This document shows positions 257-2,345 of a stretch of DNA of 2,345 nt, in pieces. The stretch lies in the IMG/VR virus record IMGVR_UViG_2778261454_000008, one strand, 5' to 3'. How positions within the stretch are numbered: position 1 is the stretch's first letter; each line of letters starts with the position of its first letter. Both the position numbers and the translations under genes were made by a program. Source of the stretch: a virus. Taxonomy: Duplodnaviria; Heunggongvirae; Uroviricota; Caudoviricetes. The notes under the pieces were generated by a model. That model saw only the letters and a program-made list of their open reading frames with translations. It was not told the DNA's origin and searched no databases.

Positions 257-296
257 ACCTCTGATGTGGCAGGCATCCTCAACGCACCCGCACTTA

Positions 297-327
297 ACCC
301 GCTTCGGCGGGTTTTTGTTTTTATTTT
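297..327 (+). terminator. Rho-independent terminator ending the hokD transcript
   Basis: Perfect 6-bp GC-rich stem ACCCGC/GCGGGT (297-302 with 307-312) closed by a TTCG tetraloop (303-306), followed by the T-run TTTTGTTTTTATTTT (313-327). No A-run precedes it, so it looks unidirectional. Confidence 0.8.
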
Positions 328-335
328 CAACGCGT

Positions 336-365
336 TTGAAGTTCTGGACGGTGCCGGAATAGAAT
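336..365 (+). promoter_or_regulatory. Putative sigma70 promoter for rem (-35 TTGAAG 336-341, 18-nt spacer, -10 TAGAAT 360-365)
   Basis: Matches consensus by eye at 4/6 (-35) and 5/6 (-10). It sits just after the terminator and T-rich tract and about 80 nt before the rem start. rem would need its own promoter because the upstream terminator is strong. Not verified. Confidence 0.3.
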
Positions 366-443
366 CAAAAATACTTAAGTAGCGCGCAGGGATAAGAGGG
401 ATGGTCCCTTAAAGGGGAGAGCTAATTATCCGGAAGGATTCTG

Positions 444-695
444 ATGATGAACATCGAAGAACTGCGTAAAATTTTTTGTGAAGATGGCCTCTATGCTGTG
501 TGCGTTGAAAATGGAAATCTTGTTAGTCATTACCGCATTATGTGTTTGCGAAAGAATGGGGCTGCGTTAATTAATTTTGTGGATGCTCGGGTCACGGACG
601 GATTTATCTTGCGCGAAGGTGAGTTTGTCACTTCATTACAGGCATTGAAAGAGATCGGAATAAAAGCTGGCTTTTCTGCTTTTTCAGGAGAATAA
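444..695 (+). CDS. rem: Rem, Qin-prophage small protein of unknown function (83 aa)
   Basis: ATG-ATG at 444/447 with GGAAGGA Shine-Dalgarno at 432-438; 83 codons plus TAA at 693-695. Translation MMNIEELRKIFCEDGLYAVCVENGNLVSHYRIMCLRKNGAALINFVDARVTDGFILREGEFVTSLQALKEIGIKAGFSAFSGE matches my recollection of E. coli K-12 Rem, and the hokD-rem-ydfU-Q gene order matches Qin. Noticeably AT-richer than its neighbours. Confidence 0.85.
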   Translation: MMNIEELRKIFCEDGLYAVCVENGNLVSHYRIMCLRKNGAALINFVDARVTDGFILREGEFVTSLQALKEIGIKAGFSAFSGE

Positions 696-761
696 ACTCA
701 TCTACAATCTTGCGCGGGGCTGAACTCCCGCTGAGTAACACCGTGCCACCGGAGAAAACCG

Positions 762-1040
762 ATGGCACGTAACGCAAAATATTACAATTCTGATAATTCG
801 CCCGTTCTTGCCTGCACGCACGGGCGGTATTCTCACGCATTCAAGTCTGAATGGTTCCAGCACCCTCCATGCACTGCAGAACAGGCCGAATGGCTGATTC
901 ATTCTTACCGCAGGCGCGGGTTCGAGGTTAAGAAAGCTCTCAGTCTCGACTATCGGCACTGGATAATCTCTGTCAGGCTGCCTTATTCCGAACGCCCACC
1001 ACGTGCGTCCCGCACTTTCCAGCAACGGATCTGGAGGTAA
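762..1040 (+). CDS. Hypothetical small basic protein (92 aa), unrecognised family; candidate gene translationally coupled to ydfU
   Basis: ATG at 762 preceded by GGAG at 751-754 (7-nt spacing). The open frame exactly fills the otherwise empty gap of about 345 nt between rem and ydfU. Its TAA stop at 1038-1040 lies 1 nt before the ydfU GTG (1042), and the ydfU Shine-Dalgarno GGAGG (1033-1037) sits inside its last codons. The translation has mixed hydrophobic and charged composition with 4 Trp, unlike the Arg/Pro/Ser-rich antisense ORF that overlaps it. No homolog recognised. Confidence 0.4.
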   Translation: MARNAKYYNSDNSPVLACTHGRYSHAFKSEWFQHPPCTAEQAEWLIHSYRRRGFEVKKALSLDYRHWIISVRLPYSERPPRASRTFQQRIWR

Positions 1041-1041
1041 C

Positions 1042-2091
1042 GTGCGGGTATTACTTAGACCTGTTCTGGTGCCTGAGCTTGGGCTGGTGGTCCTTAAGCC
1101 GGGCCGTGAATCCATACAGATATTTCATAATCCTCGAGTGCTGGTGGAACCGGAACCAAAAAGCATGCGTAATCTGCCATCCGGAGTCGTTCCTGCCGTT
1201 CGCCAGCCGCTGGCGGAAGACAAAACATTGCTGCCGTTTTTTAGTAACGAACGGGTGATTCGTGCTGCTGGCGGCGTTGGCGCATTGTCCGACTGGCTAT
1301 TACGTCATGTTACATCCTGCCAGTGGCCTAATGGCGATTACCATCACACTGAAACAGTCATTCACCGTTATGGTACCGGCGCAATGGTGTTGTGCTGGCA
1401 CTGCGACAACCAACTGCGTGACCAGACATCGGAATCACTGGAGCTGCTTGCTCAACAAAACCTGTCAGCATGGATGATTGACGTCATCGGTCACGCAATA
1501 AGCGGTACGCAGGAGCGTGAATTATCTCTGGCTGAATTATCCTGGTGGGCGGTCCGCAATCAGGTGGCGGACGCGCTACCGGAAGCGGTATTACGTCGTT
1601 CGCTGGGGTTGCGTGCGGAAAAAATCCGCTCAATGTACCGTGAAAGCGACATCGTACCGGGAGAGCAGACCGCCACCAGCATACTGAAACAGCGCACAAA
1701 AAATCTTGCACCGTTGCCTCACGCCCACCAGCAACAAAACCCATCACAAGAAAAGACGGTGGTAAGCATCACCGTTGATCCAGAGTCTCCGGAATCTTTC
1801 ATGAAGCTGCCTAAACGTCACCGTTGGGTTAAGGAGAAATACACACGCTGGGTTAAGACACAGCCGTGTGCTTGCTGCGGTATGCCAGCCGACGATCCGC
1901 ATCATCTGATTGGTCACGGGCAGGGCGGAATGGGAACCAAAGCACATGATCTCTTTGTGTTGCCTTTGTGCAGAAAGCATCACGACGAGTTGCATACGGA
2001 TACCGTGGCATTTGAAGAGAAGTATGGCTCCCAACTGGAGCTGATTTTTCGATTTATCGATCGCGCGCTGGCAATTGGTGTGCTGGCCTAA
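1042..2091 (+). CDS. ydfU: DUF968-family prophage protein YdfU (349 aa from the GTG at 1042)
   Basis: Long open frame ending at TAA 2089-2091. I prefer the GTG at 1042 as start because GGAGG lies at 1033-1037 and it gives 349 aa, the length I recall for K-12 YdfU; the track's upstream GTG at 1003 has no Shine-Dalgarno. The C-terminal segment [64 protein letters not shown] is the conserved DUF968 region as I recall it. Confidence 0.85.
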
Positions 2092-2108: not shown

Positions 2109-2345
2109 ATGCGTGATATTCAGATGGTTCTTGAGCGTTGGGGGGCATGGGCGGCTAATAATCATGAAGATGTGACCTGGTCGTCCATTGCCGCCGGTTT
2201 TAAGGGATTAATTCCTTCAAAAGTAAGATCTCGTCCGCAATGCTGTGACGATGACGCGATGATCATTTGTGAATGTATGGCTCGCCTGAAAAAAACAACA
2301 GCGATTTACATGATTTATTGGTGGACTATTATGTCGGCGGCATGA
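2109..2345 (+). CDS. quuQ: Antitermination protein Q family (phage 82 / QuuD / QuuQ-like), N-terminal 78 codons only; frame ends at TGA 2343-2345, probably frameshift-truncated
   Basis: ATG at 2109 with GGAG at 2098-2101 (7-nt spacing), 17 nt after the ydfU stop. The N-terminus [39 protein letters not shown]...[10 protein letters not shown] matches my recollection of 82-type Q antiterminators, which are about 250 aa. The track's TTG start at 2094 is less likely. See the frameshift finding. Confidence 0.7.

Follow-up and report, generated by a model that had tools for sequence, protein, structure and literature searches.

The small-ORF/ydfU pair beside Q in a Qin-type Escherichia coli prophage is probably a conserved backbone segment rather than accessory cargo

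Positions 762 to 2091 of a 2,345-nucleotide stretch of viral DNA (hereafter the window; IMG/VR record IMGVR_UViG_2778261454_000008) lie beside the antitermination gene Q of a lambdoid prophage, and the question is whether they are mobile cargo or part of the phage backbone. In this segment a small basic ORF is followed, one base on, by a gene for a DUF968 protein, and an earlier note, made from the sequence alone, had taken the two as an accessory module with the architecture of a toxin/immunity or phage-defence pair. The window is part of a Qin-type E. coli prophage. Specifically, it is 100% identical except for one base to E. coli 13P484A, where the genes run in the order relB, relE, hokD, rem, hypothetical protein, ydfU, Q and lysis genes. 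The order is the same in the Qin prophage of E. coli K-12 (rem, ydfU, ydfT/quuQ), whose sequence is nearly identical to the window and whose YdfU is about 95% identical to the one described here, as judged from the closest database proteins. Qin of K-12 differs in two respects, as the small ORF of 92 aa is unannotated there and the window carries a shorter type of Q, which is frameshifted. The placement proposed in the earlier note is correct, since the pair lies downstream of relBE, hokD and rem and directly 5′ of Q, that is, in the slot equivalent to the nin region. The features that flank the pair are the following.

296..322, plus strand: intrinsic terminator after hokD, found by a terminator scan, with 5 G-C pairs in its 7-bp stem and a T-run behind it
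336..365, plus strand: sigma-70-like promoter match 5′ of rem (TTGAAG, 18 nt, TAGAAT), a match to the consensus only
444..695, plus strand: rem, 83 aa, named 'protein Rem' by PGAP and matching phrog_340
2109..2345, plus strand: 5′ part of the Q antiterminator gene (Phage_antitermQ, E=1e-31), which starts 17 nt after ydfU

The terminator sets the hok cassette apart from the block formed by rem, the small ORF, ydfU and Q. The promoter match agrees with the consensus at 9 of 12 positions and is one of 4 such matches seen where 1.9 were expected, which is weak evidence; a possible local promoter for the rem/small ORF/ydfU/Q block could be located here.

Both ORFs of the pair are as first read, the small one at 762-1040 and the larger one at 1042-2091. 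The features of the former are:

751..754, plus strand: Shine-Dalgarno sequence GGAG of the small ORF, 7 nt before the ATG at 762, read from the sequence
762..1040, plus strand: small ORF, from ATG 762 to TAA 1038-1040, encoding a basic protein of 92 aa with a pI of 10.17
762..839, plus strand: residues 1-26 of the small protein, an N-terminal extension found only in the E. coli clade, under weak constraint and with predicted disorder
840..1040, plus strand: core of the small protein (residues 27-92), belonging to phrog_1212, a mini-domain predicted to be beta-alpha-beta-beta, whose basic C-terminal tail closes with QQRIWR ahead of TAA

The small ORF is a real gene and goes beyond a chance ORF. 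It is annotated by PGAP as WP_012304870.1, and GGAG or AGAG is kept at the 751..754 position across the alleles of the clade of 92-aa proteins. That its product is a real protein follows from the selection acting on the 66-aa core (dN/dS about 0.10, with pS 0.34, over 45 distinct alleles), from the conservation of the family across genera and from the confidence with which AlphaFold2 (AF2) models the core (pLDDT about 88-91). The N-terminal extension has a pLDDT below 50 and a dN/dS of 0.78; its indels keep the reading frame, and premature stops are absent from all alleles. Homologues of 66-68 aa do without it, and ATG 762 is the sole in-frame start codon 5′ of the core.

The core matches phrog_1212 over the whole length of the profile (residues 27-92 on profile positions 1-66 of 66, E=1.7e-35), and a profile search of 1.8 billion proteins returned 105 representatives of the family at 50% identity. 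Phages bearing homologues are those of Escherichia, Salmonella, Klebsiella, Citrobacter, Cronobacter, Yersinia, Edwardsiella, Hafnia, Erwinia and Pantoea; phrog_1212 is a narrow family of Enterobacterales phages. Amino-acid motifs are kept across these genera at only 30-50% identity, and the C-terminal tail is conserved in the form Q-x-[RK]-hydrophobic-W. The closest relative found is the uncharacterised Orf QD1 of phage N15. In its size, in its operon slot before Q and in its tight packing the small ORF resembles ninD, ninE, ninF and ninH of lambda and P22, but a Pfam scan at E up to 0.1 matched it to no family, the NinD, NinE, NinF and NinH models included, and its predicted fold is beta-alpha-beta-beta, while NinF is a zinc ribbon and NinH a Fis-like helix-turn-helix (HTH) protein. 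NCBIfam matches neither the small ORF nor YdfU, sequence and profile searches of the PDB gave nothing significant for either protein, a single-protein locus scan with P0348 returned no matches, and a literature search by peptide, accession or PHROG identifier found no mention of the small protein. K-12 MG1655 encodes a 100% identical 92-aa protein at complement 1644306..1644584, an ORF that the reference record leaves unannotated.

The second gene of the pair encodes a much larger protein, with these features:

1042..2091, plus strand: ydfU (PGAP name), from GTG 1042 to TAA 2089-2091, 349 aa
1306..1410, plus strand: N-terminal Cys/His cluster of YdfU (H89, C93, D99-Y-H101-H102, C118-W-H120-C121-D-N123)
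1867..1995, plus strand: His-Me finger motif of YdfU (C276-x2-C279, D284-D-P-H287-H288, C310-x2-H313-H314, H318)

YdfU is predicted to be a zinc-dependent nuclease of the His-Me finger (HNH) type. Residues 160-346 match positions 1-171 of Pfam DUF968 (PF06147) with 258.4 bits against a cut-off of 27.8 (E=4.3e-77), and the protein matches phrog_96, 'HNH endonuclease', at E=4.5e-171. In Pfam it has only DUF968 and HNH-type families as matches, the latter being HNHc_6 and RecA_dep_nuc, both weak and below the cut-off. Across 22 homologues no variation is seen at C276, C279, D284, D285, P286, H287, H288, C310 and H318, while position 313 is occupied by either H or C and H314 is almost always kept. 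The description of a DUF968 protein with an HNH-like motif in the earlier note holds. The zinc knuckle and the catalytic-His motif are intact in sequence, in a predicted beta-beta-alpha-metal core. Alignments of this motif to McrA (6ghc) and YbcO (3g27) place it on their HNH cores with scores that are not significant (E about 1.3), and comparison of the C-terminal domain with the YbcO profile by hhalign gives E=8e-4. The AlphaFold2 model of YdfU, built on an alignment of homologues at 76% identity or more, is poor (pLDDT 52), so that its best Foldseek hit in the PDB (E=3.6) is meaningless and the nuclease fold rests on the sequence motifs and on the published classification. In the latter, DUF968 and DUF1364/YbcO form group 7 of the His-Me finger proteins, NinG is likewise placed in the His-Me finger superfamily, and a role in recombination is proposed (PMC5714182); Curtis et al. 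2014 likewise tie DUF968 to phage recombination functions (PMC4118853).

The Cys/His cluster of the N-terminal region could form a further zinc or HNH-like module, as C93, D99, H101, C118, H120, C121, D122 and N123 are kept in the 58%-identical mEp460 (SfV-type) and the Chris1 homologues; H102 is not conserved in them. A tandem-HNH arrangement was considered and is not established (hhalign of the N- against the C-terminal module, E=0.039, probability 1.3%). Curtis et al. 2014 also proposed for DUF968 an N-terminal domain like that of lambda Orf/NinB (PMC4118853). In YdfU no Pfam NinB match was seen at E up to 0.1, and the NinB-like DUF1367 gave hhalign values of E>=0.2, with shallow profiles and the poor AF2 model. 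The idea that YdfU is a fusion of DUF1367/NinB and YbcO, Qin being a permuted form of the DUF1367/small ORF/YbcO trio, was rejected for want of any such signal.

Among the known nucleases, YbcO of DLP12 (DUF1364, PDB 3g27) shares with YdfU the zinc-knuckle His-Me finger core and the slot before RusA or Q. It has about 96 aa compared with the 349 of YdfU, which has in addition 160 aa at its N-terminus, where the Cys/His cluster lies, and a long linker of poor order. The structure-specific endonuclease NinG/Rap of lambda is encoded in ninR and has a His-Me finger, as YdfU is predicted to have from its sequence; however, YdfU does not match Pfam NinG (PF05766), for which the Gifsy-2 NinG control scores 274 bits, and hhalign of its C-terminal domain against NinG gives E=0.019 only. 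Ref of phage P1, a RecA-dependent HNH nuclease (PF16786), matches weakly over the HNH core (residues 268-316, E=0.0019), but YdfU is not a member of that family, given 18.7 bits against a cut-off of 26.9 and a different architecture.

The two genes meet at a junction of a few bases:

1033..1044, plus strand: coupling junction, with GGAGG, TAA, C1041 and the GTG of ydfU at 1042

The Shine-Dalgarno sequence of ydfU, GGAGG at 1033-1037, thus falls inside W91 and R92, the codons that end the small ORF before its stop, and the stop of one gene and the GTG start of the other are separated by a 1-base gap, which confirms the tight coupling seen at first reading. The 92-aa clade has 13 distinct junction sequences, of which 12 share this layout, and in the clade of 66-aa proteins the equivalent junction is TGG-GGG-TGA-NN-ATG, whichever gene comes next. 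Tight packing is found at every gene junction of this operon, and therefore does not point specifically to a partnership of the small ORF with YdfU. At one locus (L196) a member of the small-protein family is kept even though 133 nt separate it from the following gene, to which it is not coupled.

A survey of co-occurrence, proposed together with the original reading, gives a divided answer: the 92-aa form goes with YdfU throughout E. coli, and at the level of the family the association fails in both directions. In E. coli, the 92-aa form precedes YdfU in all 86 loci surveyed. Their junction is present, at a query coverage of at least 80%, in 4238 of 5426 complete E. coli genomes (78%), in up to 8 copies per genome and with 14 of 7289 copies on plasmids; YdfU itself reaches 9 copies per genome. 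Phage records carrying the pair include Tritos, HannyBb and PhiR42_1, and in such records the 92-aa ORF (n=20) and the Qin-type YdfU (n=20) correspond one-to-one, against 173 records with a full-length YdfU-like gene. In SfV and mEp460 the small ORF is missing, and a KilA-N gene stands 5′ of their full-length YdfU (58% identity). Conversely, among the surveyed loci the short members of the family precede YbcO (63 loci), NinG (33 loci, with NinG directly 3′ also in Gifsy-2 and GF-2) or orf48 of PY54, and elsewhere they are followed by RusA and then YdfU, by the methyltransferase Dcm, NinF and NinG in this order, by a 59-aa ORF and then NinG, by the exonuclease ExoVIII, or directly by Q with no nuclease nearby. 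One identical core stands before NinG in three loci and before YbcO in another. Over the whole survey, a biased sample drawn from IMG/VR and genomes with the 80 closest relatives taken per scan, the gene right after the family member encodes a His-Me finger nuclease (YdfU, YbcO or NinG) in 182 of 185 loci, many of which share ancestry, so that the locus counts are non-independent events. Given this figure and the 86 of 86 loci in E. coli, the small protein may have a functional link with His-Me finger nucleases.

What varies is the gene 5′ of the pair, which is rem in the window, an HTH gene with ImmA/IrrE in phage Tritos and others elsewhere, the pair staying beside Q or beside RusA and Q. 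Being fixed next to Q while the slot 5′ of it changes, the pair behaves as backbone. The proposal that the pair itself is accessory cargo is not supported: the variable cargo slot lies 5′, and is filled by rem. In addition, the segment has the lambdoid ninR-type arrangement, being on the same strand between the replication/early genes and Q, and functional phages share it with the recombination genes NinB/DUF1367, RusA, NinG and YbcO. We consider it probable that 762-2091 is a conserved part of the Qin-type lambdoid backbone, the Q-proximal end of a ninR-like block of recombination and DNA metabolism, rather than a cassette of mobile accessory genes.

A sequence of events can be proposed. Between positions 660 and 1059 of the window C exceeds G, an excess typical of Rho-binding sites. 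In the resting K-12 prophage a strong Rho-dependent terminator 5′ of ydfU halts transcription, and the same study counts ydfU among 'toxic prophage genes' (PMC9160355). As gene order and the biology of lambda suggest, rem, the small ORF, ydfU and Q would be read by early rightward transcripts that get past the terminators located here. Ribosomes would start at ATG 762, stop at TAA 1040 and restart one base on at the GTG of ydfU by means of GGAGG; since that sequence lies inside the small ORF, the synthesis of YdfU would be tied to the translation of the small ORF, as the layout of the junction suggests. YdfU would fill the slot held in other lambdoid phages by NinG/Rap, YbcO or RusA, and this slot, together with its family membership, indicates that it most likely processes branched or single-stranded intermediates of recombination or replication. 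The small protein would be a separate product under selection, with a basic beta-alpha-beta-beta mini-domain and a tail rich in arginine, that works whatever gene follows; given this indifference to the next gene, it most likely acts on a target shared between loci, for example DNA or a host factor, rather than as dedicated antidote or subunit of YdfU.

The backbone reading has to be weighed against others that assign the pair a more specific function. A possibility, which we regard as unlikely, is that the small protein is a dedicated accessory factor of the nin-region His-Me finger nucleases, with the pair acting as a two-component recombination enzyme in which the small protein might target, activate or restrain the nuclease on DNA or at the replisome. 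The near-constant succession of YdfU, YbcO or NinG, only 1-2 nt further on and with a Shine-Dalgarno sequence in the last codons of the small gene, would fit such a role, as would the common His-Me finger fold of the three nucleases (PMC5714182), the one-to-one pairing of the 92-aa clade with Qin-type YdfU, the basic character of the protein and its tail, which could be an interaction peptide. The same family, however, also precedes RusA, which has a different fold, Dcm, ExoVIII, small ORFs, or Q with no nuclease nearby, and its identical cores serve before NinG or YbcO. Moreover, YdfU of SfV and mEp460 has no small ORF upstream, and NinG of lambda and YbcO of DLP12 presumably also go without such a gene; the near-neutral extension of the YdfU-linked clade is unlike a co-evolving interface, and in mosaic lambdoid genomes a conserved gene order can give adjacency without any functional link. 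A wider version holds that the phrog_1212 protein is an unrecognised and widely shared accessory factor of lambdoid recombination nucleases that recruits or restrains whichever His-Me finger nuclease follows. It would explain the near-constant translational coupling and, if true, would have the tail and mini-domain act at DNA branch points or on a replisome or repair protein of the host; we judge it quite improbable. Very improbable, in turn, is a toxin/immunity or anti-phage defence pair carried as cargo, in which the nuclease YdfU would be toxic and the small basic protein would act as antidote to it or as sensor. Such a view draws on the tight coupling of a small ORF to a predicted nuclease, as in type II toxin-antitoxin modules such as relBE, where the small gene likewise comes first; on the genuine toxin-antitoxin cargo nearby (relBE, hokD); on the strong Rho block of transcription into K-12 ydfU and its 'toxic' grouping (PMC9160355); and on one phage record that labels the small ORF 'toxin to Rem', for which the literature search found irrelevant papers only. 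A search of PADLOC-DB v2 (2023) at E up to 1 gave no family for the small ORF, YdfU or Rem, and neither protein of the pair matches a toxin-antitoxin family. In addition, co-occurrence is not obligate in either direction, the coupling is operon-wide, and the pair does not act like a mobile cassette, being confined to the pre-Q slot of lambdoid genomes with few copies on plasmids; the hypervariable slot is the one 5′ of it. The predicted fold of the small protein also appears atypical, since the DNA-binding domains of antitoxins are typically of the HTH, RHH or AbrB type. The toxin/immunity or defence architecture of the earlier note is consequently not supported.

Finally, the small ORF could be a translated leader only, its product having no function, that feeds ribosomes to the weak GTG of ydfU or counters Rho. 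The TAA-C-GTG stop and restart with a Shine-Dalgarno sequence inside the small ORF, the excess of C over G in the region, the reported Rho-dependent terminator 5′ of ydfU (PMC9160355) and the near-neutral first 26 codons are what a leader would show. We hold this to be extremely improbable, because the constraint on the core, the motifs kept across genera, the confident core fold and the retention of the family where the next gene is uncoupled all speak for a functional product.

As a probable backbone segment and not cargo, 762-2091 does not belong among the candidates for defence or toxin systems. An intact, selected gene of 92 codons for amino acids is absent from the annotation of K-12 MG1655, though it is found in most E. 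coli genomes; the family to which it belongs is undescribed and adjoins phage recombination nucleases, and YdfU is among the commonest uncharacterised nucleases of E. coli prophages. Two minor observations concern the surrounding sequence. A minus-strand ORF at 702-1115 (137 aa) overlaps the small ORF and was set aside as a shadow ORF, as selection and homology fit the plus-strand frame. The Q gene of the window is frameshifted at a run of seven A (2289-2295), where the closest record has eight and encodes a Q protein of 125 aa.

The window finds a full-length match, with one base different over its 2345 bp, in E. coli strain 13P484A, and its home is a Qin-type cryptic lambdoid prophage. The order annotated in that strain is relB, relE, hokD, rem, a "hypothetical protein", ydfU, antiterminator Q and lysis genes, and the same arrangement is found in K-12 MG1655. 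The last three genes of the window are:

762-1040, plus strand: small ORF of 92 aa, with an ATG start and a TAA stop at 1038-1040 (ORF list and sequence)
1042-2091, plus strand: ydfU, 349 aa, starting with the GTG at 1042
2109-2345: antiterminator Q (Pfam match), beginning 17 nt past ydfU

The small ORF carries a GGAG 7 nt ahead of its ATG, and its last two sense codons form the GGAGG that precedes the ydfU GTG, a single base separating the two frames. The earlier note had described a coupled pair at 762-2091 just before Q, with a basic small product and an HNH-like motif in the DUF968 protein, and this description is correct; the pI of the small product is 10.2. The minus strand has an ORF of 137 aa at 702-1115, which overlaps the small ORF and the beginning of ydfU in antisense and was taken to be a shadow ORF. 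Within Q, positions 2289-2295 hold a run of 7 A's versus 8 in the otherwise identical NZ_CP019280, so that the frame is shifted and stops at 2343-2345, giving 78 aa rather than the 125-aa protein; either genuine slippage in the homopolymer or an error in sequencing accounts for it.

The small ORF is a genuine gene. PGAP annotates it as WP_012304870.1 in thousands of genomes, residues 27-92 of the product match phrog_1212 (E=2e-35), and tblastn retrieves it from 59 phage records, which span at least 10 enterobacterial genera. Among 45 distinct alleles of the E. coli clade, dN/dS is 0.10 for the core (residues 27-92) and 0.78 for the 26-residue N-terminal extension, in which all indels are in frame and none of the 45 alleles has a premature stop; the ATG at 762 is the only in-frame start upstream of the core. 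Structure prediction returns a disordered extension followed by a confident beta-alpha-beta-beta mini-domain with a basic tail. In K-12 MG1655 the ORF is intact (NC_000913.3, complement 1644306..1644584; minus strand 4307-4585 of the extracted locus L002) and encodes an identical protein, with one synonymous difference in the DNA, and the reference record annotates nothing between rem and ydfU. When 1.8 billion representatives were searched exhaustively with a profile, only 105 relatives came up, mostly of 65-68 aa, which makes this a narrow, phage-borne family. No family was matched in Pfam or NCBIfam, fold and sequence searches gave no informative match, and a literature search found no paper mentioning the protein. 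The viral model library contains a single relative by structure or sequence, N15 Orf QD1 (BFVD O21966, 142 aa; 32% identity over 66 columns), so the domain is also found as part of a larger protein in a linear-plasmid prophage. A contig of a metagenome-assembled genome labelled Veillonella parvula (JAGZPX010000007.1, locus L008) carries the E. coli-type 92-aa ORF at 91% identity, most probably through contamination or a binning error.

YdfU, in turn, matches Pfam DUF968 (E=4e-77) and the PHROG family "HNH endonuclease", together with weak matches to HNHc_6 and the P1 Ref family that fall below Pfam's cut-offs. DUF968 has been classed with DUF1364/YbcO (PDB 3g27) in His-Me finger group 7, in a classification that assigns NinG to the same superfamily and suggests roles in recombination and repair (PMC5714182), and Curtis et al. 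tied DUF968 to phage recombination proteins (PMC4118853). YdfU is thus probably a His-Me finger nuclease of the recombination/repair type. The predicted motif, C276-x2-C279 ... D-P-H287-H288 ... C310-x2-H313-H314 ... H318, is intact in the window and largely invariant across 22 homologues; it aligns with the McrA and YbcO cores at non-significant scores, while hhalign of YdfU against the YbcO profile gives E=8e-4. The N-terminal 160 residues hold another conserved Cys/His cluster outside the DUF968 match (residues 89-123, window 1306-1410; C93, D-Y-H101, C118-W-H-C121-D-N), a candidate for a second zinc or HNH-like module; hhalign detects no significant resemblance between it and the C-terminal module (E=0.039). 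Structure prediction for YdfU, with close homologues only as input, was unusable. In the alignment of YdfU homologues, the C-terminal nuclease part (residues about 250-349, window about 1790-2091) splits E. coli homologues that are otherwise alike into two sharply distinct allelic types, "...ESFMKRPKRRRWVNEKY...CACCG..." versus "...AQYLQRQKPQREEMPVY...CMTCG...", a pattern that points to within-gene recombination.

How specific the partnership is was surveyed in 190 family copies at about 190 loci, taken as the closest relatives per scan from GTDB genomes, IMG/VR contigs and annotated phages. Every one of the 86 readable loci of the E. coli 92-aa clade, which represent 33 different small-protein cores, has YdfU as the following gene and a TAA-N-GTG junction. 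The 92-aa form occurs in 20 phage records, and a YdfU with 79% identity or more likewise in 20. Of 5426 complete E. coli genomes, 4238 cover at least 80% of a junction probe (860-1240), with as many as 8 copies in a single genome. Within E. coli the two genes thus form a stable unit. Co-occurrence holds within that species but not family-wide, and the link breaks down at this level. Specifically, Pfam-checked genes following the 66-68-aa members are YbcO/DUF1364 (63 loci), NinG/Rap (33) or PY54 orf48, and one and the same core precedes NinG at three loci and YbcO at another. In the distant phages Chris1 and L193, RusA stands between the small-ORF relative and YdfU; elsewhere the next gene is a cytosine methyltransferase (Erwinia phage 59), exodeoxyribonuclease VIII (PhiR46_1), a short ORF without known function (Hafnia and Pantoea phages) or, 133 nt off, Q itself (locus L196). 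A full-length YdfU-like gene is present in 173 phage records, and the SfV/mEp460-type YdfU (58% identity) lacks the small ORF and has a KilA-N protein gene upstream instead.

The earlier note had read the pair as accessory cargo of toxin/immunity or phage-defence type. What varies is the position upstream of it, in the interval that separates the hokD terminator from the small ORF (window 340-761). There, rem is present in this window and in K-12, phage Tritos (2638-4394 of its locus, L205) and some E. coli genomes have an HTH and ImmA/IrrE metallopeptidase pair, and elsewhere the interval is filled by other small genes. The pair itself is constantly joined to Q, or to RusA and Q, and its relatives neighbour NinB/DUF1367, YbcN, RdgC-like, RusA, NinF and NinG genes in functional lambdoid and N15-like phages. 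We consider it likely, then, that the two genes, coupled in translation, belong to the ordinary backbone of the recombination segment preceding Q. Coupling alone is no sign of partnership, because all junctions in these operons are equally tight; the constant E. coli adjacency would suit a genuine nuclease-cofactor relationship, which the varied partners across the family leave rather doubtful. The earlier note's interpretation is thus right only in part, in that the two genes form a genuine, jointly inherited pair in E. coli. A toxin or defence system is very improbable: neither product matches any PADLOC defence model and the link is loose family-wide. One GenBank record names a small-ORF homologue "toxin to Rem" (phage vB_EcoS-689R5, L007, 3501-3779), a name for which a full-text search found no supporting paper.

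As for expression, a strong intrinsic terminator follows hokD, the promoter-like match ahead of rem is weak, and a published study counts the terminator lying upstream of ydfU with the strongest Rho-dependent ones of K-12 (PMC9160355). Around the small ORF (window 660-1059) C exceeds G, with a GC skew down to -0.29, the opposite of rem, where G exceeds C; Rho-binding sites show the same excess of C over G. In the lambda nin region, terminators are overcome by antitermination only, and the terminators around the pair would fit this arrangement.
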